64,000 nt of DNA from an uncultured Candidatus Saccharibacteria bacterium (GTDB lineage: Bacteria; Patescibacteriota; Minisyncoccia; Phycocordibacterales; UBA9973), in NCBI GenBank assembly GCA_964361705.1, contig CAYIBP010000001.1:26727-90726 (forward strand), given 5' to 3'. Shown here one piece after another: positions 27,971-61,766 of the stretch (position 1 is its first letter; every line of letters begins with the position of its first letter). The notes below the pieces were generated by a model, which did not search any database, was not told the origin of the DNA, and saw only the letters and a program-made list of their open reading frames with translations. The translations under genes and the position numbers were made by a program.

Positions 27971-29437
27971 CTATATCATAGGTTCGGCTTCTTGTGAAAT
28001 TGCTTTCTGTATTTTTTCTTCATTAGAATCTTTGCCTTTGTTGGTGATAGCGGCCTTTTCTTCCGCGCTTCGGATGATAGTAGATTCTTCTTCCTCAATC
28101 AATTTCTTGGCATCTCCTCTTGATATGGCAAACTTTTTGCGTGAAGCCGCGATGATTTCTGCTTTGTATGAAGGATGCGTTGGTGGCAATATGCGCAGAG
28201 TCTCGGCAGAAAATGGATCATAACTTTCTCCATCTATTGTCATTTTTATATATATTTCCCCCACTGCCAGATTGATCATATCCTTCACACCGAAAAGCGG
28301 ATCGAATTCTGGTTTTAGTTTTACAGCGTCCTCCCCCCCCACACGAAATGAAATAATACTTCCAGTATTTCCTAGCACCGCCTGATATATTTTCGGATTT
28401 ATTTGGCCGACATATTGGTGCGCCATGGTCAGATTGAGTCCGTATTTTCGCGCCTCTGACAAAATGTTTTCAAATGTTTGCGTCACGACATTTTGAAACT
28501 CATCAACATATATGTAAAAATCAACACGATCTTTCTCTGGAATATTGGCACGCTCCATACCCGCCTGTTTTATCTTGGTCAAGAACATAGATCCAAAGAA
28601 AGAAGAATTTTCTTCACCTATGCGTCCTTTAGAAAGATTGATAAAGATTATTTTCTTCTCGTTCATCAACTTGCTTATGTCTATGCGGTTTTCCTTTTGC
28701 CCGAAAATATTTCGAAGCAATGGATCAGATAAAAACTGCCCGAGTTTGTTGACGAGCGGTATGATAGCGTCCGTGTCGAACTTTTCAGACCAATCGGCGA
28801 ATTCGATAGCGAAGAATCTTTTCACCATATCGTCTTGGATGTACTCCACCACTTTCTGTCTGTAATTTCTATCCGTCAACATCGAAATCATTCCACGCAT
28901 AGTGGCGTATGGGTAGTCTAGGAGCGCCAGACAAGTAAAACGAAAAACGTGCTCCAAACGCGGAGTCCAGTTGGCACCGAATTGCTTTTGCAAAACTTCG
29001 ATCAAACCCTGCGTCAATTGGAATTTGAACTGCGGATCGACATTCGACAGTGGGTTGAATGATGCGGGATATTCTGTGTCAGATGGATCAATAATGCACA
29101 CATCTTCAATGCGTTCTTTGGGTATATAATCAAGCATTGCCTCTATCACATCACCGTGCGGGTCGATAAGACAAAGACCGTGCCCATAAGTCACATCTTG
29201 ACGAAGCATCAGCTCGAGGAGCTTGGTCTTGCCGACACCAGACTTGCCTATGATATACAAGTGCCTGCGTCTGTCCACGCGCTTGATACCGAAAATAAAT
29301 TTCTTTTCTTCAAGAGCCGCGACATAATTGGTACGCCCGATAAAAGAAACCTCTTCAGGCTTGACCTTGCCAAAAACAGGTAGCTCTGGCGGAGGCGGAC
29401 CGTATTTTATTATCTGCACTCGATTGGGCTTAGACAT
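27971..29437 (-). CDS. soluble P-loop ATPase of the FtsK/HerA/VirD4-TraD (T4CP-like, AAA_10/DUF87-type) superfamily, paralog 1
   Basis: Walker [12 protein letters not shown], Walker [11 protein letters not shown]-terminal TMAHQY...[16 protein letters not shown] block resembling T4 coupling proteins. No TM helices. Stop lies 7 nt from the dnaJ start. Confidence 0.6.
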
Positions 29438-45115: not shown

Positions 45116-45994
45116 TTAGATAGGACAAACCGTTATTCCAGTTTTTCTTTTTAAAAGTTTCTGCATATTACCAAGTCCTTCTACTACGGCATCTATCCGA
45201 TCTTGAGAATCCTCCTCAGTTACTTTATTTTGAGCTATAAATTCTTTATACGCATTCCAACTTTCTTCGGTAAGACGACAAGAAGACGATTCGGTGTACG
45301 CCAACAAAACTCCGTTATAAGAATTCAAATTACCTTTTCTTACCAATTTACTTTGTCCTATTTTTAGATTATTTGAAGCTTGATCTACTTCATCTTGAGT
45401 ATTATCTTCTGTAACCAAATTAGATTTTATAACTTCCTGATATTCAGCCCAACTTTTTTTGGTATATCTTTCTGAAGGTAATTGATCATATTTGTAACCA
45501 GGAATTAAAGTATAATCATAATTTGCCAAAACTGCTTGGTATTCAGATAAATCTGGGATAGGTTGATCGCACGATAAACGCCTTATTCTTAATCTTGTTT
45601 TTAAATCTGCTAAACCACTAATTTCTAAATTGTTACTCTTTTGGAAAGACTTAACCGCTCTCAAAGTCATTGGGCCAAACACACCATCATTTTTACCGCT
45701 TAAATATTTTTTTGATTTAAGAAATTTCTGTAAGAAATATACAGGTCCATTGGCATTTTTGTCCCTATCTTTGTAGGTAATGTCTTGAGTAAGATCGATG
45801 CAACTCTCATCGTAACCTGAAACTACAATGTTTGACACTGAAGGATATGCAGCGCAAGGCATACCTGTCAAGTTGCTGTATTTATAACCCATGGAACAAG
45901 AATCTATTTCTGCTGCCTTTGTTTGACCAGCAAATGTGAATAAAACAAAAAGCAAAAGCACTAATGAAATATTCTTTTTCATATTATTTTTCAA
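45116..45994 (-). CDS. secreted protein with peptidoglycan-binding (PG_binding_1-like) domain and two FIVAR-like repeats
   Basis: Signal peptide MKKNISLVLLLFVLFTFAGQTKA. PG-binding-like VYFLQKFLKSKKYLSGKNDGVFGPMTLRAVKSFQKSNNL. Two repeats of type YTKKSWAEYQEVIKSNLVTEDNTQDEVDQASNNL, similar to repeats in the N-terminus of the 2367-aa protein. Confidence 0.55.
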   Translation of the reverse strand: MKNNMKKNISLVLLLFVLFTFAGQTKAAEIDSCSMGYKYSNLTGMPCAAYPSVSNIVVSGYDESCIDLTQDITYKDRDKNANGPVYFLQKFLKSKKYLSGKNDGVFGPMTLRAVKSFQKSNNLEISGLADLKTRLRIRRLSCDQPIPDLSEYQAVLANYDYTLIPGYKYDQLPSERYTKKSWAEYQEVIKSNLVTEDNTQDEVDQASNNLKIGQSKLVRKGNLNSYNGVLLAYTESSSCRLTEESWNAYKEFIAQNKVTEEDSQDRIDAVVEGLGNMQKLLKRKTGITVCPI

Positions 45995-46154
45995 TCGAAT
46001 TATTTGATAATGCGTCTGTTTTTTCTTTTTTGAGGGATTTTGAAATTATCAGAGAGAGAGAGAGCCATGTACACAAAACAAAACCCGAAAGCGATAGCTT
46101 CCTTATCTAGACTAATAAATTGATCTCTAATACTCCAAGGGGTAATAATAACGA

Positions 46155-46439
46155 TTATAATATATATATATATATATTAGTAAACCTTCTCCAGAAAATA
46201 AAAACTGATTCTTTTAATTTTAAGACAATCAAAGAAAAGACAAGAATTGGAACAGAAATCATCGTAAATATTAAAAACAAATCGAAAGCTTTATTGCATA
46301 TATTATAGATATTTGTTTTTTGACAAAAATCGAAAAAATAATATGGCATTATAAAACGAAAAACAATAAACACTATAGATAAAACAAAGGAAATTGTAGT
46401 TATCTTTTCTTTTGTAAACCACTCAAGTAATTTCTTCAT
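46155..46439 (-). CDS. small membrane protein S1 (paralog of S2/S3, truncated), C-terminus encoded by (TA)8
   Basis: MKKLLEWFTKEKITTISF... aligns with the S2/S3 N-termini (MDKLLEWFTRKRI…). Ends NIYIYIL* where S2/S3 have FIYLFIYLFIYLF. Confidence 0.45.
   Translation of the reverse strand: MKKLLEWFTKEKITTISFVLSIVFIVFRFIMPYYFFDFCQKTNIYNICNKAFDLFLIFTMISVPILVFSLIVLKLKESVFIFWRRFTNIYIYIL
46161..46176. repeat. (TA)8 dinucleotide repeat inside the 3' end of S1
   Basis: Read directly: tatatatatatatata. Confidence 0.8.
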
Positions 46440-46445
46440 AAAATT

Positions 46446-47114
46446 TTAGTTAAATATTAATGTCTGCAAATCAAAAGAAACTGGTAAATATAGTGTGGTA
46501 TTTTCTTTCGGTTCGACTTCTAATTTTTTTGTCTCTGAAATGATTCCGTTAATTTCTTTATCTACATCTAATAATATCATTTCTTGGTTGTTTCCATCTA
46601 TGTTTACTGTGTATTGAACTCCTTCTTTTACAGATATATATTTAGTATTTCCTACTTCCATATATCTTGAATTTGGTATTTCTTCAAATACTTGATTGGT
46701 AGCTTTGTCAAAACCTGTTTTCTTGCCTGTACTGTCCACGATATACATATCACCACCGGAATAGAGATTTAGAACGATGTCAGTGTTTATTTCTGAGAGC
46801 AAGGTTGTGGGACGAGAATTTATTACAATACTTTCTGGATCAGAAAAAGTGTTATTTTGTATTTTTGCCTTTATAAAATTTCTTAGGTTTGAAATTTCCA
46901 AGATATCTTTGTGAGTTCTGTCCTTTGGAAAACTATCCTCTTTCTTCAAATCCACCCACCACCTCTCTACTTTATCAGATGCATTCATCCATAGAGCAGA
47001 TGAAGTGGCTACTGTCTGATCTCCTTCAAAAGTAGTTTTTGTTTTCGAATGAAATTTATCTTTATCAACAATATAATCTATCCCCGCCAAGGTCTTTTCC
47101 CCCCCATCCACCAA
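46446..47114 (-). pseudogene. out-of-frame C-terminal continuation (222 codons) of surface protein A
   Basis: Translation VDGGEKTLAGIDY…DRTHKDILEISNLRNFIKAKIQ… is collinear with the C-termini of proteins B and C, but in a different frame from 47065-49935. Frames diverge at the C7 (plus-strand) homopolymer at 47099-47105. Confidence 0.6.
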
Positions 47115-49912
47115 CTTGTATCACTTTCGTATTTTCTGGAGCTTGCCAGTTATCAAGTATTTGATGCACTTGTTCCGCGTTGTTGTACAAAGTTTCGTTT
47201 CCATTGTTTGGATTGTCCAAATCATCTCCTGTTGGTTTTTCTCTCCCCTCTTTACCAAGAATGAAATCTTTAAACTCCGTGAAATTTGATATTTCATTTC
47301 CGTATTTTTCTGTTTGTTTTGAAAAAAGTTCGTGATTTGGGAAAGTAATTATCTTGTTTAGATTTAAACTAGGATCACCTTGAATATCGAAATATTCCTT
47401 TGAAGGAAGGAGGTTGTATGTTGTGGGCATATTTTCTGCGAGGTATCTTTGGTTTGTGGCAGTCATAACAACACCGTATACTAACCTAGTTCCATGCAGA
47501 AGAGAAAGAAATCCCTCCGGCGTTCCCACTTGTGGTGTAGCTACGAATATCACTTTATCTATTTTATCATACAGTGGATCGTTTTGATCTTTGAGTTTCT
47601 GTATTAATGCCTTGATGACTAGTCCACCATTTGAGTGTCCTATCAGTGTGACTTTTCCTGATTTTGAATTTGATTGCAAATCTCGAAGTTTCTTGAGTAT
47701 GAAAGATTCTGAGAAAGTTTGATCTTCTGTGTATGAGAGTTTGCCTCTTTCTTTTACTTTTCCGTTTGTGATAATGTCATCTAGTGATAAACGCCAATCG
47801 TAAGGAATAAAAGCATAATCATTTATGGTCTTATCTTTTTCTTTCCAGTCTCGTAGATCATCTATGAATGACTGGTAAATATTAATACCATAAGCATCAT
47901 CAACGATTCCTGTTTCATCTGAAAATGAATCGTTTACTGTATCATTTTTAGTGTAAAGGTCTAAAACCTTTTTGCCATTTTCATTCAACGCCATTCTCTT
48001 TTGTTCATCGGGTAAAATTCTGATGGAAACCCACAACTCTTTATCTTCAACGCAATTCATAAACAGATCTTCACAATAATCGGCTGATGGTCCTGGCAGA
48101 GCCTTTACCTCCTCATACAACCTCGAACCCATGATCCCAGGGAAGAACATTACATTTGAGAAACAATCTGTGGTGCAAATAACAGGTGCGACTTCTTGTT
48201 GTTTAGTTTTAAAGTATAGTTTTTCTGACAACCATCCACCTTGGTTTTGAGCGTCTTTCGCTCTGACATGCCAATAGTACAATGATCCTGGATTAAGATT
48301 TGCTGTGTATGAATTTGTGGATATGTCTTCCTTGTCTACTTCAAGGTTTCCTGTAGTCATGTTGCGGACATACAAAGCATATTTTGAAGCTCCGGGTACA
48401 GTGTTCCATGAGAATGCTTGGGTGGTACTTGATATTTCTGGAACAGATGAATTTTTTGCTGTTTCATCTGATGAGAAATACTTACCTGGGGATATTTGTT
48501 CTGGATTCGGTAAATATATATTCTTTGGAGTACAAAGACCATTTAATTCAAATTGGTTCAGATCAAACTCTGATAGAGTAGATGAACAAGCAGGTAACAC
48601 CTTGAATTCATTCGATGTTGCTGTAGCAGAATTGTATGTCGCTGTTAGTTTTACTTGATTTATAGCAGAAGTGAGTTTTACTTTTCCAGAATATTGATTG
48701 CTCTGTATTGTTACAGATTTTGGGTAGATATTTCCCATACTAGATGACAGAGAAATATTTGAACCATTTGGGATATTTTGAGTGTTCAAAATGATATCAA
48801 ATTCAGAACCATTTTGAACTTGAGAAATGTTGTTCCAAGATACTGTGGAGACTCCTGGAGGTGGTGGTGGAATTTCTTTCTTGTTCACAGTGATTGTGAT
48901 GTCTTGTGTGACAGCTTGGCTATTTGATCCTAAACATCTAAAAGTAAATGTCGTAGTCTGATACATCGGTCCGATGTTGTAAGTGGTATTGTGCAAAGGG
49001 TAATTTACTAATCCTGCCCCAGAAATATCACAGGAAGAAGTGTTGGTGCTAGAAAGGGTAAATGTTCCATTCTGTCCTTCTTCCACTGTTTGAGTGGTTG
49101 GAGTTACAGAGATGGTAGGAGTAGCAGGTTCATTGTTTACTATGTAAAAATACCATCTATCTGTGAACCATCCAGAACGACCGAGTGAGTCGTGAGCGTT
49201 TGCGTTCCAGCCGTAACTATGTCCTTTTTGAAGATTTACTGTGCAAGAAGTGGTAGCCAGATTTTGACATACAGGTAATAGTAATCCTCCGTTGTAATAA
49301 TCACGAATATTAATATCGTAAGTGGAAGCTCCTACTGAAGGAGTGATAGTGAATGTTTGGGTTGAAGTCATGACTGAAGCACCATCATCGGGAGAAATTA
49401 GAAATGGTTCCTTTAGATTTGGGTTTGCAGGAGCACAGAGGCCTTCGAGTTTGAATGTTTTCTTTTTGTTTAGATCTATTTTTAATGTTTCCTGTTCTTT
49501 GTTTAAATGTTCATATTCCCCTTCTTCTGCTAGACAGCTTAAGCTAGAGGAAGCGGTGAAGGAGGAGGTACCTACTGTTTGGCCGTTGTATTTTGCTGTG
49601 ATAGTGACGGGTCCATAGGCTGAAGTGATTGTAAACTCTTCGTAGTAGTTCGGATATGGTGGACGGATTGAATTCGGAGAAAGATTGCCCATCGAAAGGT
49701 GTAGGGTTATCTCCTCGGACTGGCTTTCATTTACGGGGATGCCTTCCGTTTTAAAATTGATGAGAAATGTGTCTCCGTTTCTTATGTTTCCAATGTTACC
49801 AAAGGTGACCTTTGGTGTGGTGTTTGAGACATTTACGGTGAAGGGTTGCTGGGCAAAGACTTGTAGTGGTGAAAGTATGAATATGAGAAGAAGGAATGTG
49901 GAAAGGAGATTT

Positions 49913-49935
<23 letters not shown>
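47065..49935 (-). CDS. secreted multidomain surface protein A (Ig/FN3-like repeats + lipase-like alpha/beta-hydrolase domain), frameshifted near 3' end
   Basis: Signal peptide MSQLPKTKNLLSTFLLLIFILSPLQVFA. Lipase-like nucleophile elbow LIGHSNGGLVIKALIQKL and FVATPQVGTPEGF. Homologous to B and to the C-terminal ~1100 aa of C. ORF terminates prematurely after …VIQVGGWGGKDLGGDRLYC* owing to a +1 G in a G-run relative to B. Confidence 0.6.
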
Positions 49936-50344
<409 letters not shown>

Positions 50345-50350
50345 AAAATT

Positions 50351-53293
50351 TTAGTTAAAAGTTAATGCTTGCAAATCAAAAGAAACTGGTAAATCTAATG
50401 TAATCTTTTCTTTTGATTCTATTTGTAATGTCTTTGTTTCTGAAACAATTCCATTCATTTCTTTATCTACATCTAATAGTATCATTTCTTGGTTATTTAC
50501 ATCTATGTGTACTGTGTATTTAGTACCTTCTTGTACAGAGATATACTTAGTATTTCCTATTTCCATGTATCTGGAATTTGGTATTTCTTCAAAAACCTGA
50601 CCTGTGGTTTTATCGAAACCTGTCTTTCTGCCGTCATTATCAGTGACATACATTTCACCCCCAGAATATAGGTTTAGAACTATATCAGTATTTACCTCTG
50701 AAAGAGAGGTTGCGGGACGGGAGTTTATGACGATGTTTTCTGGGTCAGAAAAAGAAGTATCTTGTATTCTTGCCTTTAAAAAATTTCTTAGATTTGAGAC
50801 TTCTAGAATGTTTTTATGTGACTTGTCTGGAAAACTTTCTTCATTATAACTCTTCAAATCCACCCACCACCTCTCTACCCTGTCAGAGGTATTAATCCAC
50901 AAAGAAGATGAAATAGCCACGGTTTCATCTCCTTCCTTTGTCGTTCTAGCCTTTGGATACATAGTCCTATTGGAAGGAGGACAGTTGAGAGGTAAACAAC
51001 CAGTTGATTTTGTTCCATACTCTATCCCTGCCAATGTCTTCTCCCCCCATCCCCCTACCTGTATCACTTTTGTATTTTCCGGTGCTTGCCAGTTATCAAG
51101 TATTTGATGCACTTGTTCCGCGTTGTTGTACAGATTTTCATTGCCATTGTTTGCATTGTCTAGGTCATCCCCTGTTGGTTTTTCTCTTCCTTCTTTACCT
51201 AGAATGAAATCTTTAAACTCTGTGAAATTTGATATTTCTGTACCATATTTCTCTGTTTGTTTGGAAAATAGTTCGTGATTTGGGAAAGTTATTATCTTGT
51301 TCAGATTTAATGAAGGATCACCTTGGATGTCGAAGTACCCTTTTGATGGGAGTAGATTGTATGTGGTGGGCATATTCTCTGCGAGATACCTATTGTTTGT
51401 GGCGGTCATCACAGCTCCAAAAGCAGCTAATCTAGTGCCATGTAATAAAGAAAGAAATCCTTCCGGAGTTCCCACTTGCGGAGTGGCTACTAATATTACT
51501 TTATCTATCTGATTGTAAAGAGGATCGTTTGCATCTTTTAATTTTTGTATTAAGGCTTTGATCACCAATCCTCCGTTTGAATGGCCTATCAATGTGACTT
51601 TACCTGATTTTGAATTTGATTGCAGATCTCGAAGTTTCTTAAGAATGAAAGACTCGGAAAAGTTTTGTGAGTCAGCATATGATAGCTTGTTTCTTTCCCC
51701 CACTTTTCCATTAGTGATGATATCTTCGAGTGATAATCTCCAATCGTAAGGCACTAATGAGTAGTCTGTTATCACATTACTATTTTTCAAATCCTTCAGA
51801 TCATCAGCAAAAGATTTGTAAATATTAAGACCTATGAAGCCTGGAACTTCTTCTACTAATCCTTTGTCTTCTTTTGTGTAAATATCGTAGATCTTCTTGC
51901 CATTCGAATCTAATGCCATTCTTCTATGATCATCATGCAAGGCAGCAAGAGAGACCCACAACTCTTTATCCCAGAAACATTCACTGCCGTTTAGTACTTC
52001 ACCACAATCCAATGAACCTTTCTCCTCATACAACCTCGACCCCATAATCCCAGGAAAGAACATAACATTTGAAAAACAGTCTGTGGTGCAGGTAGTAGGG
52101 ACAATTTCTTGGGATTTAGTTTTAAAGTATAGTTTTTCTGATAACCATCCACCTTGATTGTTGCTGTCTTTAGCTCTGATGTGCCAGTAGTACAATGATC
52201 CTGGATTTAGATTTGCTGTATATGAGTTTGTAGATATGTCTTCTTTGTCTACTTCAAGGTTTCCTGTTGTCATATTACGAACATACAGTGCATATTTTGT
52301 AGCTCCGGAGACTGTTGTCCATTTGAAAGTCTGGGTTGTAGAGTCTACTTCCTCCCCTGTCCAGGCCTTGCCTGGACTTAGGGGTTCCGGATTCTGTAGA
52401 TATATATTCTTCGGAGTACACAAACCAGAAAGCTCAAATTCAGATAGTTCGAGTTCTGAAAGAGAAGAATAACATGTAGGATCAATATCGAATGTATTTG
52501 AAGTTGTTAAAACATTTCCATTGTACGAGACTTTTAATTTCACTTTGTTGATAGCTGAAGTTACTTTGATATTTCCTGTATAAGTATTGTTCTGTATTGT
52601 TACTGTCTTTGGAATCACAGTCCCCATAGCAAAAAGTGGTTGGTCTTCATCATTTGGGACACCGAAAGAAGTGAGTTCAAGATTCGTTCCATCTGCAATA
52701 TTTGTGGTATTGATCGTTATCGGAAAAAGTTCGCTCGTTTTGGTATTTAAGATTTGAGAGATGATGGCTGTGGGGATGCCTGGTGGTGGTACCACTTCTT
52801 TCTTGTTCACAGTGATAATGATGTCTTGAGATACTGCTTGGCCATTTGATCCAATACATCTGAAAGTAAATATGGCAGTTCGATACATAGGTCCAATACC
52901 GTAATCACCATTAGCAAGACGGTGGTTTACGAGTCCAGCTCCTGTTATGTCACAAGAAGTGGTATTAGTGGAAGAAAGAACAAAGCTTCCGTCTGTTCCT
53001 TCCTCTATTGTTTGAGTTGTGGGAGTTACTGATATTGTAGGTGGAGTGTTGGGATTTTGAGATCTAACATTAAAATACTTTCTGTCTGCAAACCATCCTG
53101 ATCTATTTTGAGAATCAAAGGCATTAGCATTCCATGTGTAGTTGTGTCCTTCTTTTAAGACTACATCTACAAATTGACCTGTAGTTTTGTAGACAGTGAG
53201 TTCATTGTTTACAGAGATGTCTCTGATATTTACTTCATATCTGATAGCGTTGGGGACATATGCTATCTCTAGGGTTTGATTTGGTCCATACAC
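50351..53293 (-). CDS. secreted multidomain surface protein B (5'-truncated copy of the C-terminal half of C)
   Basis: Listed ORF starts at GTG, but the frame stays open upstream into the adjacent IS-like element, so there is no native signal peptide. Contains GHSNGG lipase-like domain and Ig/FN3-like repeats. Residues ~1-730 are identical or nearly identical to the corresponding part of C. Confidence 0.5.
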   Translation of the reverse strand: MYGPNQTLEIAYVPNAIRYEVNIRDISVNNELTVYKTTGQFVDVVLKEGHNYTWNANAFDSQNRSGWFADRKYFNVRSQNPNTPPTISVTPTTQTIEEGTDGSFVLSSTNTTSCDITGAGLVNHRLANGDYGIGPMYRTAIFTFRCIGSNGQAVSQDIIITVNKKEVVPPPGIPTAIISQILNTKTSELFPITINTTNIADGTNLELTSFGVPNDEDQPLFAMGTVIPKTVTIQNNTYTGNIKVTSAINKVKLKVSYNGNVLTTSNTFDIDPTCYSSLSELELSEFELSGLCTPKNIYLQNPEPLSPGKAWTGEEVDSTTQTFKWTTVSGATKYALYVRNMTTGNLEVDKEDISTNSYTANLNPGSLYYWHIRAKDSNNQGGWLSEKLYFKTKSQEIVPTTCTTDCFSNVMFFPGIMGSRLYEEKGSLDCGEVLNGSECFWDKELWVSLAALHDDHRRMALDSNGKKIYDIYTKEDKGLVEEVPGFIGLNIYKSFADDLKDLKNSNVITDYSLVPYDWRLSLEDIITNGKVGERNKLSYADSQNFSESFILKKLRDLQSNSKSGKVTLIGHSNGGLVIKALIQKLKDANDPLYNQIDKVILVATPQVGTPEGFLSLLHGTRLAAFGAVMTATNNRYLAENMPTTYNLLPSKGYFDIQGDPSLNLNKIITFPNHELFSKQTEKYGTEISNFTEFKDFILGKEGREKPTGDDLDNANNGNENLYNNAEQVHQILDNWQAPENTKVIQVGGWGEKTLAGIEYGTKSTGCLPLNCPPSNRTMYPKARTTKEGDETVAISSSLWINTSDRVERWWVDLKSYNEESFPDKSHKNILEVSNLRNFLKARIQDTSFSDPENIVINSRPATSLSEVNTDIVLNLYSGGEMYVTDNDGRKTGFDKTTGQVFEEIPNSRYMEIGNTKYISVQEGTKYTVHIDVNNQEMILLDVDKEMNGIVSETKTLQIESKEKITLDLPVSFDLQALTFN

Positions 53294-53305
53294 TATTTCA
53301 GGATT
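51112..53305. repeat. ~2.2-kb near-identical direct repeat, copy 1 (matches 55424-57617)
   Basis: Constant offset of 4312 bp; identical sub-ORFs (51229-51435 = 55541-55747; 52236-52472 = 56548-56784). Boundaries judged by eye from flanking mismatches. Confidence 0.75.
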
Positions 53306-53428
53306 GTTTTTGTCTTCTGAACCAGGACTTACTAGATATGGTTCTGCTAGATTTGGGTTTGGTGGAACGCAGAGACCTTCGAGTCCATACCGGGTATGGA
53401 CAGTGTTGGTGTTTAGGTTGATGAGAAG

Positions 53429-54156
53429 AAGGGTGTCAGGTACCCTTTCTAGGTCTCCAGGGTAAACGAATTGTCGCTTCCAATCTAAATTTCTTAATAA
53501 TCTTCATCGACCAATCATCACTTCCATAAGGCTTCCCTTTCGTCACCGAATGTCTAATAGTTTCTTCCTCTTCACTAGGTTGTGATTCATTGACTAGTGA
53601 TAGATAATTATTGGGTTTTGATATAGGCCAATCTGATAACAATTTCTTTTGTTCGGTACTTCCATGTATTTTACGCCACAAACTAGAGAATCTCCAATTT
53701 TCTGCCTTTCGTACCAATTTAGCGCGAAGAGGATTACGTTCAACATAACGAATGACTGAGAGCAGATGATTATCTTTTTCAACAATAAATGATTTGTAAC
53801 GACCTTGATAAAGATGGCCTGTACCCTTTGTGTTTTTTTCTTGGTGCCAACGCTGAGTATGTGTCAATGTAAGCCATTGCATAAATTTACATAGATCTCC
53901 GTCACTTTTTGGATAAAGGACAAGATGAAAATGATTTGGCATTAGTATGTATGCAAGAATACGCATATTATACTTATCTTTTGCTTCTTCTAAGACATTT
54001 TCAAATAGAGTGTAATCTTCTTCTTTAAAGAAGATCGGTAGACGCGCGTTTGCGCGATTGATAACATGATAACAATATTCACCAATATCTGTACGTAGAA
54101 CTCTTCCCATATTTTGATTATATCAGATTTTAATTAAAAGGGTACCTGACACCCTT
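53429..54156. mobile_element. compact IS-like unit: HUH/Y1 transposase gene flanked by perfect 20-bp terminal inverted repeats
   Basis: Left end AAGGGTGTCAGGTACCCTTT (53429-53448) and right end AAAGGGTACCTGACACCCTT (54137-54156) are exact reverse complements. They enclose the transposase ORF 53436-54110. Confidence 0.65.
53436..54110 (-). CDS. IS200/IS605-family-like Y1 (HUH) transposase, RAYT/TnpA_REP-like
   Basis: HUH motif MPNHFHLVLYP and catalytic Tyr region GHLYQGRYKSFIV; 224 aa, in the size range of REP-associated tyrosine transposases. Confidence 0.7.
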   Translation of the reverse strand: MGRVLRTDIGEYCYHVINRANARLPIFFKEEDYTLFENVLEEAKDKYNMRILAYILMPNHFHLVLYPKSDGDLCKFMQWLTLTHTQRWHQEKNTKGTGHLYQGRYKSFIVEKDNHLLSVIRYVERNPLRAKLVRKAENWRFSSLWRKIHGSTEQKKLLSDWPISKPNNYLSLVNESQPSEEEETIRHSVTKGKPYGSDDWSMKIIKKFRLEATIRLPWRPRKGT

Positions 54157-54239
54157 ACCTTCAGCAACTTGTATTATTTTGATCCATACTTTTTCATTCT
54201 AATTATTATTAATCTAAATTTATTGCAGAAAAAAGATTT

Positions 54240-54656
<417 letters not shown>

Positions 54657-54662
54657 TGTATT

Positions 54663-57600
54663 TTAGTTAATTGTTAATGCTTGCAAATCAAAAGTAGCAG
54701 ACAAGTCTAGTGTAATTCTTTCTTTTGATTCTGTTTGTAATGACTTCGTTTCTGAAACAATTCCATTTATTTCTTTATCTACATCTAATAATATCATTTC
54801 TTGGTTATTTCCATCTATGTGTACTGTGTATTTAATGCCTTCTTCTACAGAAATGTATTTTGTATTTCCTACTTCCATGTATCTGGAGTTTGGAATTTCT
54901 TCTTTCGTCTCTCCATTTACTATACCTGTAATTCTACCTGTACTATCTGATATATACACATAGCCTCCAGAATAAAGATTCAGAACAATGTCTGTTTTCA
55001 TTTCTGAAAGAGAATAATTGGGTTTTGAATTTACAATTATATTTTCTGGATCGGAAAATGAAGCATCTTTAATCTCTGCCTTTATAAAATTTCTTAAATT
55101 AGAAACCTCGAGGATATCTTTATGCGTTCTGTCTTTTTCAAAAAATCCTCCCTCTTTCTTCAAATCTACCCACCATCGTTCTGTGTTAGCATCTGTATTC
55201 ATCCAAAGGGCAGAGGATGTTACTACTGTTTCATCGCCTTCAAAGGAGGTCTTTGTTTTAGGGAAAGGTTTTATAATTGGAATCCCGCAAATACCAAACT
55301 CACATTTTTCACCATATTTTTTAGCCATATACTCTATACCTGCAAATGTTTTTATCCCCCACCCCGCAACCTGTATCACCTTCGTATTTTCTGGAGCTTG
55401 CCAATTATCTAGCATTTGATGAATCTTTTCAGCGTTGTTGTACAGATTTTCATTGCCATTGTTTGCATTGTCTAGGTCATCCCCTGTTGGTTTTTCTCTT
55501 CCTTCTTTACCTAGAATGAAATCTTTAAACTCTGTGAAATTTGATATTTCTGTACCATATTTCTCTGTTTGTTTGGAAAATAGTTCGTGATTTGGGAAAG
55601 TTATTATCTTGTTCAGATTTAATGAAGGATCACCTTGGATGTCGAAGTACCCTTTTGATGGGAGTAGATTGTATGTGGTGGGCATATTCTCTGCGAGATA
55701 CCTATTGTTTGTGGCGGTCATCACAGCTCCAAAAGCAGCTAATCTAGTGCCATGTAATAAAGAAAGAAATCCTTCCGGAGTTCCCACTTGCGGAGTGGCT
55801 ACTAATATTACTTTATCTATCTGATTGTAAAGAGGATCGTTTGCATCTTTTAATTTTTGTATTAAGGCTTTGATCACCAATCCTCCGTTTGAATGGCCTA
55901 TCAATGTGACTTTACCTGATTTTGAATTTGATTGCAGATCTCGAAGTTTCTTAAGAATGAAAGACTCGGAAAAGTTTTGTGAGTCAGCATATGATAGCTT
56001 GTTTCTTTCCCCCACTTTTCCATTAGTGATGATATCTTCGAGTGATAATCTCCAATCGTAAGGCACTAATGAGTAGTCTGTTATCACATTACTATTTTTC
56101 AAATCCTTCAGATCATCAGCAAAAGATTTGTAAATATTAAGACCTATGAAGCCTGGAACTTCTTCTACTAATCCTTTGTCTTCTTTTGTGTAAATATCGT
56201 AGATCTTCTTGCCATTCGAATCTAATGCCATTCTTCTATGATCATCATGCAAGGCAGCAAGAGAGACCCACAACTCTTTATCCCAGAAACATTCACTGCC
56301 GTTTAGTACTTCACCACAATCCAATGAACCTTTCTCCTCATACAACCTCGACCCCATAATCCCAGGAAAGAACATAACATTTGAAAAACAGTCTGTGGTG
56401 CAGGTAGTAGGGACAATTTCTTGGGATTTAGTTTTAAAGTATAGTTTTTCTGATAACCATCCACCTTGATTGTTGCTGTCTTTAGCTCTGATGTGCCAGT
56501 AGTACAATGATCCTGGATTTAGATTTGCTGTATATGAGTTTGTAGATATGTCTTCTTTGTCTACTTCAAGGTTTCCTGTTGTCATATTACGAACATACAG
56601 TGCATATTTTGTAGCTCCGGAGACTGTTGTCCATTTGAAAGTCTGGGTTGTAGAGTCTACTTCCTCCCCTGTCCAGGCCTTGCCTGGACTTAGGGGTTCC
56701 GGATTCTGTAGATATATATTCTTCGGAGTACACAAACCAGAAAGCTCAAATTCAGATAGTTCGAGTTCTGAAAGAGAAGAATAACATGTAGGATCAATAT
56801 CGAATGTATTTGAAGTTGTTAAAACATTTCCATTGTACGAGACTTTTAATTTCACTTTGTTGATAGCTGAAGTTACTTTGATATTTCCTGTATAAGTATT
56901 GTTCTGTATTGTTACTGTCTTTGGAATCACAGTCCCCATAGCAAAAAGTGGTTGGTCTTCATCATTTGGGACACCGAAAGAAGTGAGTTCAAGATTCGTT
57001 CCATCTGCAATATTTGTGGTATTGATCGTTATCGGAAAAAGTTCGCTCGTTTTGGTATTTAAGATTTGAGAGATGATGGCTGTGGGGATGCCTGGTGGTG
57101 GTACCACTTCTTTCTTGTTCACAGTGATAATGATGTCTTGAGATACTGCTTGGCCATTTGATCCAATACATCTGAAAGTAAATATGGCAGTTCGATACAT
57201 AGGTCCAATACCGTAATCACCATTAGCAAGACGGTGGTTTACGAGTCCAGCTCCTGTTATGTCACAAGAAGTGGTATTAGTGGAAGAAAGAACAAAGCTT
57301 CCGTCTGTTCCTTCCTCTATTGTTTGAGTTGTGGGAGTTACTGATATTGTAGGTGGAGTGTTGGGATTTTGAGATCTAACATTAAAATACTTTCTGTCTG
57401 CAAACCATCCTGATCTATTTTGAGAATCAAAGGCATTAGCATTCCATGTGTAGTTGTGTCCTTCTTTTAAGACTACATCTACAAATTGACCTGTAGTTTT
57501 GTAGACAGTGAGTTCATTGTTTACAGAGATGTCTCTGATATTTACTTCATATCTGATAGCGTTGGGGACATATGCTATCTCTAGGGTTTGATTTGGTCCA

Positions 57601-60600
57601 TACACTATTTCAGGATTATTCTTGTCTTCTCTACCAGGACTGACTAGATACGGCTCCCCTAGGTCAGGATTCTGTGGAAGGCACAGACCTTCGAGTGAAG
57701 ATAAGGATTTGATTTCTCCTTTTTCAAGATCAATGAAACTTGCTAGGTCTTGCCTAGCAAGATCTGTATCTGCTAGACATCCTGCTCCGCTTGAGACGGT
57801 GAAAGAATTTGAAATGCCTACAAGCTCAAATTTACTGCCAGCTGTGTTTGCTCTGTAATATGCTCCTATTATGATGCTTCCTGTAGCTGAAGTGATGGTA
57901 AAAGGAACGGTATTTACTGTACCTGTGGTAATGATATGTTGAGGGTTAATATTTCCCATCAATGGAACGATATCAATGACTGATCCAACTGGAATGTTTT
58001 GAGTTGTGAGGGTTATCGTGTTTGTGTCGCCATTTCTTGTGTTTGGGATATTGCTAAAGGTCACCTTTGGTAAGGTGTTTGAGACATTTACGGTGAAATT
58101 TTGCTGTATAGAGGAACCATTTAATCCTACACATTTCATGGTAAAGGTCTTACTCGTGAACATAGCACGTGTAGGATAGCGTCCGTTTAGCGAACCAGCA
58201 AGAGTGTACAAAAATCCTGTCGCGTCCCAGACAGAGCAAGAAGATGTGTATGTAGTCGTCAAATCATACAGAGCCTGTTCTCCATAACCCACAGTCTGTA
58301 CAGCAGGAGTAACGGACATAGTAGGTGGTTGCAGTGGAGGGGTTTTTACCGTGACATAATTACAAGGAGAATATCCCAAAGTTAATCCAGGATAGTCAAA
58401 AGCTCTGACAGAAATGCAATAGCTCCCGACAGCACTATATGTGTGTCCAGCAAACTCTGGAGTTCCGGAAGAATTGAAAGCAGTAGAACCCATAGTGCCG
58501 TCACCCCAGTTGATCTGATACCAGATTCTATCGCCTTCTCCATCTGTGGAGACCATAGAAATATTGTAGTTGTTGTTTACATTCACACTGCCCGATCCAG
58601 AGATAGTTGGCACAGAAGGTGGAGTGTTTTGTGAAGGTTGTGTTTGGAAATAGTAATAAGGTGGATAAAGAGAAGTACCGACAGCATTCACGCTTCTGAC
58701 ACCCCAAACATATCTGTGACCTAGAGCAAGCGCAGGCGAAGTGGTAGATGTGCCATACACAGTTCTATCTTTAAAAATATCTAAACCTGTAGTGAGATCA
58801 GCTATATATGCTAAATAATGAGTAGCATTTGAAACAGGATTCCAAGAAATGGTCACAGTATTTCCTGAAAGTATAGGACCGTAAGCAGAAGTATAACCAG
58901 GAGTGAGACCTGTCGGTGTCGCAGGTACTGTGGCAGGATTTATGACAGTGAAATAAAATAATGAAGAAAAAACTCCCTTTGTGCCGTTGGACTCATAGGC
59001 TACCATATTCCATCGGTATGATCTGCCGGGGATGAAAGAATAATTTGGAGTAAAATTCGTACCATAATTGCACGAAGGCCAATTGCAATCCACTATCAAT
59101 TCATTTGTTACATTATCTCTGACATGTACACCGTATTGCAAAGCACCGGAAACAGCAGACCAATAAAATGTAACTTTACCATTTGTATGTGCGACAGATA
59201 TCCCCGGCTGAACTACACTACCCGGAGCGAGGAGTTGTGGCGCAGACAATGCTTGCAGGCTAAAAGTATCCGGCACAAATGTTTTTGGATCGATTATCTC
59301 GCCTGCTTTGGATTGAGGATTTATAGAGTTGCCTTCAGTGTCTTTTTTGAGTTTTATATCTATCTCACTTTGTGAAAGTTTTGCGCCAGAGAGAGAACGA
59401 CCGCCACCGAATACTTTTCCGTTTTTAGAATAGCTGGCAAGAGTGGGAATTTTCGGTAATTGTTCTATCGCTTTTTTGGCATCAATATTGTCATTTGATT
59501 TTGCCACCAAATAAGCGGAAATTATCGGTGCGGAAAATGAAGTACCATTCATTTCTCCATATTCGCCTCCTGATTTTGCAGAGAGTATTCCCACACCTTC
59601 AGCAAACACATCCACTGTTTTTCCATAGTTTGAAAATGAAGCTATGTTTCCAGAACCATCGAGTGCGCCGACTGTAATCAGGTTGCCATTATTGAAACTC
59701 GCTGGATATATTTTTGTCTCATCAATATTGAAACCATAATTTCCAGCAGAAGTCACCATATATACTCCGTGATCCTGCGCATACCTTATCGCTTCTTCGA
59801 GTTGCTTTGAATATGTAGGCCCTGCAAAAGACATGTTTATTATTTCCGCTCCGTTGTGCACCGCGAAAAGTATCGCTCGCACTATATCATCTGTCTGTAA
59901 TAGTCCATAATCCGCCACGCGTAGAGACATTATCTTTACATTGCCTCTGGATACAGAAGATATGCCCATACCATCATCAGCCGATGCTCCGATGATAGAT
60001 GCCACCGCCGTGCCGTGTGAATATCCGTCTGTCGGATATGGGTCTTTGTCATCCCCTACGAAATCATACCCACCATCGCAAGAACCTATTGCTTCTGTTT
60101 TTTCATTTACACAATTCTGTGTCGTCCATTTTGAAAGAAATAGATCGGGGTGAGAAAAATCCACTCCAGCATCTATCACCGCCACCACAGGCAATGAACC
60201 TGTATTTGCTTTTGTATTCCAAATCTTTTTATTTGTTTCTAAAATACGATGCAGATATGTCTGCTTGTGCCACAGAGGGTCGTTGGGAGTATAGTCCCCC
60301 GCCTTCTCCGGGGCAAGTTGCAAAGCCATAAAATACGGGCTTTCCACTGCACCACCCCCTTCTTTTTCCACTTCTGTTGCAAGCTGTTGGTTGATTTGTT
60401 TTAGGGTTTCAAAGGCTCCAGCATCACTGATTTTTTGTCCTTGCGCCCTTCCCTCGATTACAGGGGCGGATCCCTCGGGCAGCAAAAAATCAGTAATGCT
60501 TGCGCTTGCCTTTATTTTCGCATTTTCTTTTATTATTTGTATTTCTTTTTCAACGCTCGCAACTTCGCTCGCTTTCATTTTGTTCACATCGAGAGCCTGC

Positions 60601-61766
60601 AAACCGTTTAAAATATTGAAAAGTCTGTTTGCTTTCTCGGAATTTATATCCCGTTCCTCTTTTGGAGTTTTCTTGTTTTTTGGAATTTTTGTTTTTACGG
60701 CAACAGGAATAGTTGGATCGTAAAAACCCTGTAGTTCACCATCACTATTTTTCACCAAAAGGCTTTGCGCTTTTTTCAAGAGATCGACAACATTGTCCAC
60801 TTCGGCTTGCGTATTCTCTGTAGTTAATTTGTTGTTAGCTTCCAATACTAATATATATGCATTCCAAGAGTCTTCTGTATAACTATTCTTGGCTTCTGTC
60901 GGCACTTGTTCTAATACTTTTCTGTATTCTGTTAGATCCGCTTTGATAACGATAGAATTTTGTGCTTCGGATATTTTTTGTGTTGCTTCATCTACCCTAT
61001 TTTGAGTATCTTCTGTGTTTACTGCGTTAGTATCTAAAACATTTTTGTATATATTCCAGCTAGTATTTGTATATAGATATGAAAAAGATTCTGGATATGC
61101 CAAGAGCACACCGTTGTATGAATTCAGGTTTGATTTTTTTAGAAGTAAGCTCTGCCCTATTTTGATATTGTTTACTGCTGTGTCTATTTCAGCTTGAGTA
61201 TTGTCTGTGGTAACGATGTTTGTATTCAAGGCTTGCTGATATGTTTGCCAGCTCGTATTGGTATAATTTACGGATGCAGTATCGGGATAATTCAAAATCA
61301 CAGCGCTATATTCTGACAAATCCCCCTTTGGTTTCGGAGGAATTATCTCTCCCTCTATTACTATGCCATCTGTTAGAACAATAATAGGAGAACCGTGGTG
61401 AGCGGTACAATCATTGCCACCGTAAGCTTTCAGTAATACAGTATATTTTCCTGGTCTAGATGGAGCCTTTATCTGAAACTTTATTGTGGCTGTAGTACCT
61501 GCTTTGTGGTTTGCTGTATCTATGCATATCCATTCGTTGTTGCCTATTTTGTATTTAGTGGAGAACCAGTTTGACGGAGAGGTGGAGGTTACCGTCATAT
61601 TCACATTTACCATAGCGTTTCCCTTTACTATTACGCTTTGTTTGCCTCCGAGGTTGGCAGAGTCTATGATGCGAGCGGCAGAAACCTGGGGAACGATGGA
61701 TACCAAAGGGCTAAAAGCTGTAATAAGCAACAAAACCGAAATCGAAAAATTCTTGAAAATACGCAT
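54663..61766 (-). CDS. giant secreted multidomain protein C (2367 aa): Ig-like N-terminal domain, 3 FIVAR-like repeats, subtilisin-like S8 peptidase domain, FN3-like and PKD-like domains, lipase-like alpha/beta-hydrolase domain
   Basis: Signal peptide MRIFKNFSISVLLLITAFSPLVSIVPQVSA. S8 catalytic triad context (VAVIDAGVDFSHPD; GYSHGTAVASIIGA; NGTSFSAPIISAYL). PKD-like YQINWGDGTMG…GHTYSAVGSYCISVRAFDY. Lipase-like LIGHSNGGLVIKALIQKL and LVATPQVGTPEGF. FIVAR-like YTNTSWQTYQQALNTNIVTTDNTQAEIDTAVNNI. Confidence 0.7.
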   Translation of the reverse strand: MRIFKNFSISVLLLITAFSPLVSIVPQVSAARIIDSANLGGKQSVIVKGNAMVNVNMTVTSTSPSNWFSTKYKIGNNEWICIDTANHKAGTTATIKFQIKAPSRPGKYTVLLKAYGGNDCTAHHGSPIIVLTDGIVIEGEIIPPKPKGDLSEYSAVILNYPDTASVNYTNTSWQTYQQALNTNIVTTDNTQAEIDTAVNNIKIGQSLLLKKSNLNSYNGVLLAYPESFSYLYTNTSWNIYKNVLDTNAVNTEDTQNRVDEATQKISEAQNSIVIKADLTEYRKVLEQVPTEAKNSYTEDSWNAYILVLEANNKLTTENTQAEVDNVVDLLKKAQSLLVKNSDGELQGFYDPTIPVAVKTKIPKNKKTPKEERDINSEKANRLFNILNGLQALDVNKMKASEVASVEKEIQIIKENAKIKASASITDFLLPEGSAPVIEGRAQGQKISDAGAFETLKQINQQLATEVEKEGGGAVESPYFMALQLAPEKAGDYTPNDPLWHKQTYLHRILETNKKIWNTKANTGSLPVVAVIDAGVDFSHPDLFLSKWTTQNCVNEKTEAIGSCDGGYDFVGDDKDPYPTDGYSHGTAVASIIGASADDGMGISSVSRGNVKIMSLRVADYGLLQTDDIVRAILFAVHNGAEIINMSFAGPTYSKQLEEAIRYAQDHGVYMVTSAGNYGFNIDETKIYPASFNNGNLITVGALDGSGNIASFSNYGKTVDVFAEGVGILSAKSGGEYGEMNGTSFSAPIISAYLVAKSNDNIDAKKAIEQLPKIPTLASYSKNGKVFGGGRSLSGAKLSQSEIDIKLKKDTEGNSINPQSKAGEIIDPKTFVPDTFSLQALSAPQLLAPGSVVQPGISVAHTNGKVTFYWSAVSGALQYGVHVRDNVTNELIVDCNWPSCNYGTNFTPNYSFIPGRSYRWNMVAYESNGTKGVFSSLFYFTVINPATVPATPTGLTPGYTSAYGPILSGNTVTISWNPVSNATHYLAYIADLTTGLDIFKDRTVYGTSTTSPALALGHRYVWGVRSVNAVGTSLYPPYYYFQTQPSQNTPPSVPTISGSGSVNVNNNYNISMVSTDGEGDRIWYQINWGDGTMGSTAFNSSGTPEFAGHTYSAVGSYCISVRAFDYPGLTLGYSPCNYVTVKTPPLQPPTMSVTPAVQTVGYGEQALYDLTTTYTSSCSVWDATGFLYTLAGSLNGRYPTRAMFTSKTFTMKCVGLNGSSIQQNFTVNVSNTLPKVTFSNIPNTRNGDTNTITLTTQNIPVGSVIDIVPLMGNINPQHIITTGTVNTVPFTITSATGSIIIGAYYRANTAGSKFELVGISNSFTVSSGAGCLADTDLARQDLASFIDLEKGEIKSLSSLEGLCLPQNPDLGEPYLVSPGREDKNNPEIVYGPNQTLEIAYVPNAIRYEVNIRDISVNNELTVYKTTGQFVDVVLKEGHNYTWNANAFDSQNRSGWFADRKYFNVRSQNPNTPPTISVTPTTQTIEEGTDGSFVLSSTNTTSCDITGAGLVNHRLANGDYGIGPMYRTAIFTFRCIGSNGQAVSQDIIITVNKKEVVPPPGIPTAIISQILNTKTSELFPITINTTNIADGTNLELTSFGVPNDEDQPLFAMGTVIPKTVTIQNNTYTGNIKVTSAINKVKLKVSYNGNVLTTSNTFDIDPTCYSSLSELELSEFELSGLCTPKNIYLQNPEPLSPGKAWTGEEVDSTTQTFKWTTVSGATKYALYVRNMTTGNLEVDKEDISTNSYTANLNPGSLYYWHIRAKDSNNQGGWLSEKLYFKTKSQEIVPTTCTTDCFSNVMFFPGIMGSRLYEEKGSLDCGEVLNGSECFWDKELWVSLAALHDDHRRMALDSNGKKIYDIYTKEDKGLVEEVPGFIGLNIYKSFADDLKDLKNSNVITDYSLVPYDWRLSLEDIITNGKVGERNKLSYADSQNFSESFILKKLRDLQSNSKSGKVTLIGHSNGGLVIKALIQKLKDANDPLYNQIDKVILVATPQVGTPEGFLSLLHGTRLAAFGAVMTATNNRYLAENMPTTYNLLPSKGYFDIQGDPSLNLNKIITFPNHELFSKQTEKYGTEISNFTEFKDFILGKEGREKPTGDDLDNANNGNENLYNNAEKIHQMLDNWQAPENTKVIQVAGWGIKTFAGIEYMAKKYGEKCEFGICGIPIIKPFPKTKTSFEGDETVVTSSALWMNTDANTERWWVDLKKEGGFFEKDRTHKDILEVSNLRNFIKAEIKDASFSDPENIIVNSKPNYSLSEMKTDIVLNLYSGGYVYISDSTGRITGIVNGETKEEIPNSRYMEVGNTKYISVEEGIKYTVHIDGNNQEMILLDVDKEINGIVSETKSLQTESKERITLDLSATFDLQALTIN
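55424..57617. repeat. ~2.2-kb near-identical direct repeat, copy 2 (matches 51112-53305)
   Basis: See copy 1. Confidence 0.75.

Follow-up and report, generated by a model that had tools for sequence, protein, structure and literature searches.

Gene A of this locus raises a question that a single base decides: is the surplus G that breaks its reading frame an error in the data, a switch, a site of programmed recoding, or a mutation that has silenced the gene? In the window, i.e., the whole stretch of 64,000 nucleotides that was analysed, gene A lies on the minus strand and is split over two open reading frames (ORFs). The upstream ORF (A_up, 47065..49935, minus strand) encodes 956 amino acids, ends at the stop codon 47065-47067 and carries an 11-residue out-of-frame tail at its end, and the downstream ORF (A_down, 46446..47114, minus strand) comprises 222 codons in the +1 frame and overlaps A_up by 50 nt. 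Within the overlap lies a homopolymer of seven G, followed by four A (G7 at 47099..47105 on the minus strand, CCCCCCC on the plus strand), which is one base above the in-frame state. The coding strand reads GGA TGG GGG GGA AAA GAC CTT GGC GGG GAT AGA TTA TAT TGT TGA, and the G7 covers the codons of a conserved Trp-Gly-Glu in the motif GGWGE. Sequence and ORFs bear out what the first-pass annotation had described here, namely the C7 run, a +1 frameshift that splits A, and termination 14 codons on (14 sense codons from the GGA that opens the quoted stretch to the stop).

Removal of one G turns gene A into a single uninterrupted ORF, reading ...GGWGEKTLAGIDYIVDKDK... / ...VIQVGGWGEKTLAGIDYIVDKDK.... 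The joining of both parts into one protein is thus as first described, although the length is 1162 amino acids and not the ~1180 then given. The frame can also be repaired by taking one A from the A4 or by adding two G (G9, 1163 amino acids). The break falls at codon 944 of the 1162 of repaired A, 81% along the gene. Repaired A is, as had been claimed, collinear with two paralogs, B (77% identity) and C (76%), over a 576-aa region that spans the hydrolase and the C-terminal part; upstream of this region, an alignment to B and C was made solely for the dN/dS estimate. Paralog B does have one G fewer, reading GGA TGG GGG GAG AAG ACA in frame. The G7 is not enriched in the window (37% G+C), where two G/C runs of at least seven account for three G7 matches compared with 1.62 ± 1.32 in shuffled sequences, and 24 of 100 shuffles contained three or more. 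What is non-random about the tract is that it coincides with the sole frame break in an otherwise conserved gene. A G8 run, longer than the G7 of A, occurs at 28333-28340 on the coding strand of gene 27971..29437 (minus strand); it is in frame (V-G-G-E-D) and does not disrupt its host, an intact TraG/VirD4-like type IV secretion coupling-protein gene.

The consequences of the break depend on the domain in which it falls. A_up begins with a signal-peptide-like N-terminus and continues through Ig/FN3-like repeats into an LCAT/LPLA2-like alpha/beta hydrolase, of which it contains the N-terminal part with the Ser nucleophile (GHSNGG, Ser768, codon 47632-47634). The remainder of the hydrolase is in A_down, with the Asp (GDQTV, codon 47019-47021) and the His (THKDIL, codon 46911-46913) that are invariant in the family, and so is a C-terminal beta-sandwich. 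Matches to the Pfam family LCAT (PF02450; 44-49 bits against a cut-off of 21, E values of 1e-11 to 1e-13) end at profile position 233 in A_up and at about position 359 of 392 in B and C. In alignments of 11 and 19 sequences, H170-S171, G387-D388 (GDxTV) and H425 in the numbering of the C-terminal part of B are invariant or nearly invariant, and the break corresponds to G347-W348-G349, between the Ser and the Asp and His. Modeled with AlphaFold (pLDDT 82.6, pTM 0.88), the B domain has the site at the close of the core strand 341-348, with further strands, the Asp and His positions and the C-terminal beta-sandwich downstream of it. A Foldseek search with this model gave as its best solved folds LPLA2 (4x90 and 4x97; target TM-score up to 0.71, E values between 3e-12 and 2e-11 in the top four hits), LCAT, and Tle4 (4r1d), a phospholipase effector of the T6SS. 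Identity of the hydrolase domain to the solved structures is 13-18%; a sequence search of the PDB matched the nucleophile-elbow region alone, and the domain was placed by the fold search. The affected domain is accordingly modeled as an LCAT/LPLA2-like alpha/beta hydrolase with a predicted Ser-Asp-His triad. Because the break lies between Ser and Asp/His, the 956-aa product would retain the Ser and lack two of the three catalytic residues along with the C-terminal domain, and judging from the fold model and the invariant residues the enzyme function of A is most likely lost. An independent functional half-enzyme encoded by A_down was considered and rejected: this ORF has neither a signal peptide nor an evident ribosome-binding site, and it shares its first 50 nt with A_up.

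The state of the site in related genes provides the reference against which the G7 can be read. Paralog C (54663..61766, minus strand) is intact and encodes 2367 amino acids with a signal peptide, an S8 subtilase, PKD, Ig/FN3-like repeats and the LCAT-like hydrolase; at 55347-55367 it reads GCG GGG TGG GGG ATA (G5) in frame. The protein is predicted to be exported and could plausibly serve an episymbiont of the Candidate Phyla Radiation (CPR) in attacking host membranes or scavenging lipids. Paralog B (50351..53293, minus strand; 980 codons open) duplicates the 3' part of C and is truncated at its own 5' end. Both paralogs are 100% identical over ~2 kb (about 53290 to 51250) and diverged from about 51250 onward; at the site, the Trp-Gly-Glu codons of B hold a G6 (51043..51048, minus strand), the in-frame state that becomes G7 by one added G. 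The frame of B stays open upstream but offers no start codon that a signal peptide would follow. The gene is adjoined by an IS200-like Y1 transposase gene (53436..54110), which together with a small gene parts it from C. B could be either a dead remnant or a copy that acts as a silent donor for gene conversion.

In other Patescibacteria MAGs, 9/9 homologs (27-56% identity) pass through the site in a single frame, and 12 of 12 family sequences keep the motif (A/G)GWG, with E, V, L or I as the next residue. The G-run at this position measures G4 in seven of the homologs and G6 in the remaining two (L005 and L010), while of the paralogs B has G6 and C has G5; a run of seven or more is found at the homologous site in none of the paralogs B and C and the nine homologs. 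A search of relatives for long G-tracts at the same codon, suggested by the first-pass annotation as a check, hence found G4 to G6 and no lengthening. Because the run is made up of TGG + GGN + G.., with a length that varies with codon choice (GGG is the rarest Gly codon at 10%, GGA makes up 33%), it is best read as an incidental coding by-product of the conserved Trp-Gly-Glu codons.

Homopolymers are classic places for indel error, and a one-base change restores a conserved ORF in A, as would be the case if the true sequence were G6, gene A intact and the extra G an artefact of sequencing or assembly. By exact-product look-ups we traced the gene A locus in per-sample assemblies of groundwater from Hainich (Germany), which carry the NCBI label 'Patescibacteria group bacterium'. 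In the Hainich study (PMC8672522), DNA was obtained from 0.2 and 0.1 µm filters, with wells sampled in triplicate, five of them in January 2019, and each filter gave one library for sequencing on the Illumina NextSeq 500 (2x150). The G7A4 is identical in five other contigs plus the window (L001-L004, L015-L017; separate libraries), with no indel relative to the window, and these five contigs cover wells H51 and H52, both filter sizes, replicates, and coverages from 2x to 16x. The exact truncated product of gene A, 875 amino acids long in the gene call, is encoded on five contigs and the exact 221-aa downstream product, at full length, on eight. A ninth contig of low coverage has both parts of gene A with one SNP, the downstream product being partial. 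Overall, the split products are found on nine contigs and an intact product on none. As controls within the window, the G6 of B and the G8 at 28333-28340 are both read in frame. The flanks of gene A are unique (82-89% identity to B), making a mixing of paralog reads unlikely; such mixing was rejected as the origin of the extra G, given that the flanks differ by 11-18% from B and C. Because the same G7A4 recurs in independent libraries and assemblies and the G6 and G8 controls are in frame, a sequencing or assembly error at the G7 is very unlikely, to the point that we attach next to no probability to an intact G6 gene, and the sequencing error offered as one alternative by the first-pass annotation can be set aside. 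The G7 is a genuine allele and the consensus of the whole sampled population.

If the allele is real, in-frame versions of it might circulate alongside. Four hypothetical in-frame products of A (G6 with either start, minus-A, and G9) had no exact match among ~15 billion proteins, and the positive controls of this look-up (B, C and the 221-aa product) were all found. The consensus sequences of the nine contigs, from separate libraries and two wells, contain no tract-length variant at A. A DNA pattern scan that allowed G5 to G9 gave 0 matches in JGI metagenome contigs, a collection evidently without Hainich data, and scanning metagenome contigs for the hydrolase family yielded one distant locus (L014), uninformative for the tract. 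Homology searches with repaired full-length A and with a 402-aa segment across the site returned family members; both missed C/P0007 and P0012, and the 402-aa search missed P0001 too, and the absence of an ON allele rests on the exact look-ups. The sampled population is almost clonal, with 0 SNPs in 22.9 kb of another sample outside one 140-nt patch, all samples compared derive from one site and one date, and the longer repeats near A, (TTTA)x10, (TA)x9 and (CT)x7, are likewise invariant across the Hainich assemblies. For these reasons the uniform consensus G7 is weak evidence against switching and says little on the switching rate.

The switch that the first-pass annotation had proposed would require the G-run to be hypermutable, with G6 and G9 as ON and G7 and G8 as OFF states of a full-length secreted phospholipase and the sampled population in the OFF state. 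The arithmetic of the frame agrees with this, as a change in tract length toggles the frame (1162 and 1163 amino acids for G6 and G9, termination at 956 amino acids for G7), and the downstream ORF of A is intact and conserved; no length variant was seen in the nine contigs, however, and no ON product in the protein collection. The product is exported and probably interacts with a host, and exported host-interacting proteins are a typical class of contingency genes. Simple sequence repeats (SSRs) cluster at the locus: two (TTTA)x10 arrays are found in neighboring small genes, (CT)x7 and (TA)x9 each lie in the spacer of a promoter-like site, and a related MAG has another in-frame copy number (7) of the TTTA array. 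The G7 also passes a permissive screening cut-off of at least seven G/C, as applied in the PhasomeIt screen of Campylobacter, where observed tracts peak at 9-10 and where, according to its authors, mutability at the cut-off may fall below 1e-5 (PMC6321876). The tract of A sits at the very lowest value of this cut-off, and experimentally variable Campylobacter tracts are mostly 9-10. A selected hypermutable site would be expected to show a lengthened tract in relatives; none of the paralogs or homologs does, the run arising from conserved W-G-E codons, and this counts against a switch. So do the late position of the tract, which falls 81% along the gene within the catalytic core and not close to the 5' end, the lack of over-representation of G7 runs in the window, and the in-frame G8 in an intact gene resembling that of a T4SS coupling protein. 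Of two signs named at the outset as jointly speaking against a switch, uniformity of the G7 is found and other decay in A is not. Altogether, the proposed phase variation is not supported by length variants, ON products or relatives, where runs span G4 to G6; we consider it unlikely, and nothing indicates an evolved switch at the G7.

Under programmed recoding, the G7 form would instead be the normal gene, and the full-length product would arise when ribosomes shift by +1 at GGG-G or when RNA polymerase slips on the G7/A4. If the peptidyl tRNA moved by +1 from one GGG to the next, overlapping one, the result would be exactly ...W-G-E-K-T-L...; an SD-like GGUGGA precedes the slip codon at a distance of 3 nt, and the reading frame beyond is intact. 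The overlap of A_up and A_down contains a single SNP (47088 G>A, from a contig of 3x coverage); it is synonymous once the frame is restored, as recoding would have it, and carries no weight. Yet the frameshift is absent from both paralogs and from 9/9 homologs, leaving no conserved recoding site, and the in-frame paralog B has the same G-rich sequence upstream. The zero-frame A-site codon GGA is common (33% of Gly codons), with neither a hungry codon nor a stop, and no stable downstream RNA structure is predicted (z = -0.2). Efficient transcriptional slippage is known for A/T runs of at least nine, and the G7 is shorter. We regard recoding as very improbable. A -1 frameshift was dismissed by direct reading, as it leads into the third frame and not into that of A_down.

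The explanation that we prefer, with a probability of about 0.6, is a recent slippage insertion (G6 to G7), fixed in the population, that inactivated the redundant paralog A. Encoding Gly-Trp-Gly-Glu as GGA TGG GGG GAR would have created an incidental G6 run, and A would then have gained one G, most simply by replication slippage. The slippage origin at a G-run that was claimed beforehand agrees with the excess of one G over the G6 of B and with the restoration of the frame upon repair. The resulting G7 would truncate the exported protein past the core beta-strand and leave behind a 222-codon ORF without an export signal. A G7 can slip back, and an occasional reversion would be possible. Two marks of a pseudogene are seen in A, an ORF broken relative to intact homologs and the loss of essential residues. 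A third, the presence of further lesions or relaxed selection, is not seen: apart from the G7 there is no other stop, frameshift or indel in 1162 codons, and omega between A and B, at a dS of about 0.9-1.4, is 0.09 for the part of the hydrolase ahead of the site and 0.17 beyond it. These values show that the downstream part was under strong purifying selection for essentially all of the divergence between A and B, and because omega is 0.17 downstream and no further lesion is present, the lesion appears to be recent. Measured against the time since A parted from B and C, the event is very recent; strictly, it would be either that the frameshift is very recent or that gene A is still in use. The absence of other decay, which would be expected also of a reversible or recoded gene, is one point against inactivation, and the SSR-rich locus and the exported, probably host-interacting product are others.

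Several known systems resemble gene A in part. With recent homopolymer-slippage pseudogenes of redundant families and reduced genomes, gene A shares a one-base insertion in a short homopolymer, intact paralogs and homologs, lost catalytic residues, fixation of the allele in a population that is clonal, and the truncation of a paralog (B) next to it; it differs in having no secondary lesions yet and in its poly-G tract, whereas poly-A is typical of endosymbionts. SSR-based phase variation at poly-G/C tracts in Campylobacter, Neisseria, Haemophilus and Helicobacter is similar in that an intragenic G-run lies in a gene for an exported protein and a change of one base in either direction toggles the frame, in an AT-rich genome and with other SSRs close by. 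Unlike the tracts of those contingency systems, that of A is just G7, derives from W-G-E codons, is located late in the gene, is not lengthened in relatives, and shows no observed polymorphism. The resemblance to prfB-type +1 frameshifting consists in the need for a +1 shift, the GGG-G quadruplet and an SD-like sequence at ~3 nt, but the site has no stop or rare codon and the shifted arrangement is not conserved in homologs. As for the enzyme itself, the model superposes on LCAT/LPLA2 (PF02450) and Tle4 and shares the GxSxG nucleophile and the invariant Asp and His with them; in contrast to these proteins, which it matches at the said 13-18% identity, the putative hydrolase domain is fused to a signal peptide, Ig-like repeats and a C-terminal beta-sandwich, and in C to an S8 protease.

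Simple repeats other than the G7 deserve separate attention. The coding SSRs that had been noted in adjacent small genes are two perfect (TTTA)x10 arrays, the strongest tandem repeats of the window. One (50062-50102) lies in gene 49913..50344 (minus strand), a small membrane protein gene after B, and the other (54391-54432) in gene 54240..54656 (minus strand), a small membrane protein gene after C; both encode FIYLFIYLFIYLF in frame, and their host genes are paralogous. A gain or loss of one unit would truncate the protein, and a gain or loss of three would keep the frame. In the related MAG, a small gene beside a hydrolase gene has seven TTTA units in frame (L006, 6465-6492), and the L008 homolog of the small gene contains no TTTA repeat. 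Copy-number variation of the TTTA arrays was not seen among the Hainich assemblies. A look-up of small-gene variants with 7, 9, 11 and 13 units is void, as the real 10-unit products are absent from the collection too. Further repeats occupy putative promoters: (CT)x7 (46051-46064, minus strand) falls in the 17-nt spacer of a promoter-like TGTACA-17-GATAAT upstream of a gene for a peptidoglycan-binding-domain protein (45116..45994), and (TA)x9 (46160-46177) in the spacer of a promoter-like TTTACT-16-TATTAT at the 3' end of ORF 46155..46439. Promoter-like matches are not enriched (13 found vs. 17 expected), and both sites remain putative. Six SSRs of the 64 kb satisfy cut-offs of the PhasomeIt type, and five of them, namely the G7, the two TTTA arrays, (CT)x7 and (TA)x9, are located within 46051-54430 (8.4 kb). 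The TTTA arrays are stronger candidates for phase variation than the G7, and the tetranucleotide and promoter-spacer repeats are the better leads.

On a wider reading, the G7 would be part of a contingency locus of a CPR episymbiont, in which slippage-prone repeats vary a host-interaction module around secreted phospholipases; the repeats concerned would be the G7, the (TTTA)x10 arrays in the two partner membrane-protein genes, and the (CT)x7 and (TA)x9 in promoter-like spacers. We hold this to be distinctly unlikely. A full-text literature search found no paper on homopolymeric phase variation in the CPR, and such a locus, if true, would be the first SSR 'phasome', or repeat-driven phase variation, in that group. 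Since no sign of on/off switching was found, the G7 most likely represents an ordinary and recent slippage mutation. A dependence on host lipids is assumed for CPR bacteria, and secreted LCAT/LPLA2-like phospholipases are for this reason plausible host-interaction factors. For annotation, 46446..49935 should be treated as one frameshifted gene, either a pseudogene or an OFF allele, and neither as two genes nor as an error for silent correction.

The hydrolase family as a whole is in flux, with C intact, B 5'-truncated and A frameshifted, which fits duplication followed by degeneration and shows a rapid turnover of the family within a clonal aquifer population. A separate observation concerns contig H51_01um_R2_58 (L003/L004), which differs from the window solely by 34 SNPs; these form a patch of ~140 nt about the codon of the catalytic Ser. 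In B the patch lies at 51461-51602 and in C at 55773-55914; it is identical in both, mostly synonymous, and closer to A (88.6% vs. 83.5%). This suggests gene conversion from another paralog or strain, and the placement of the patch in both B and C may be an effect of assembly, as these genes share a perfect 2-kb repeat.
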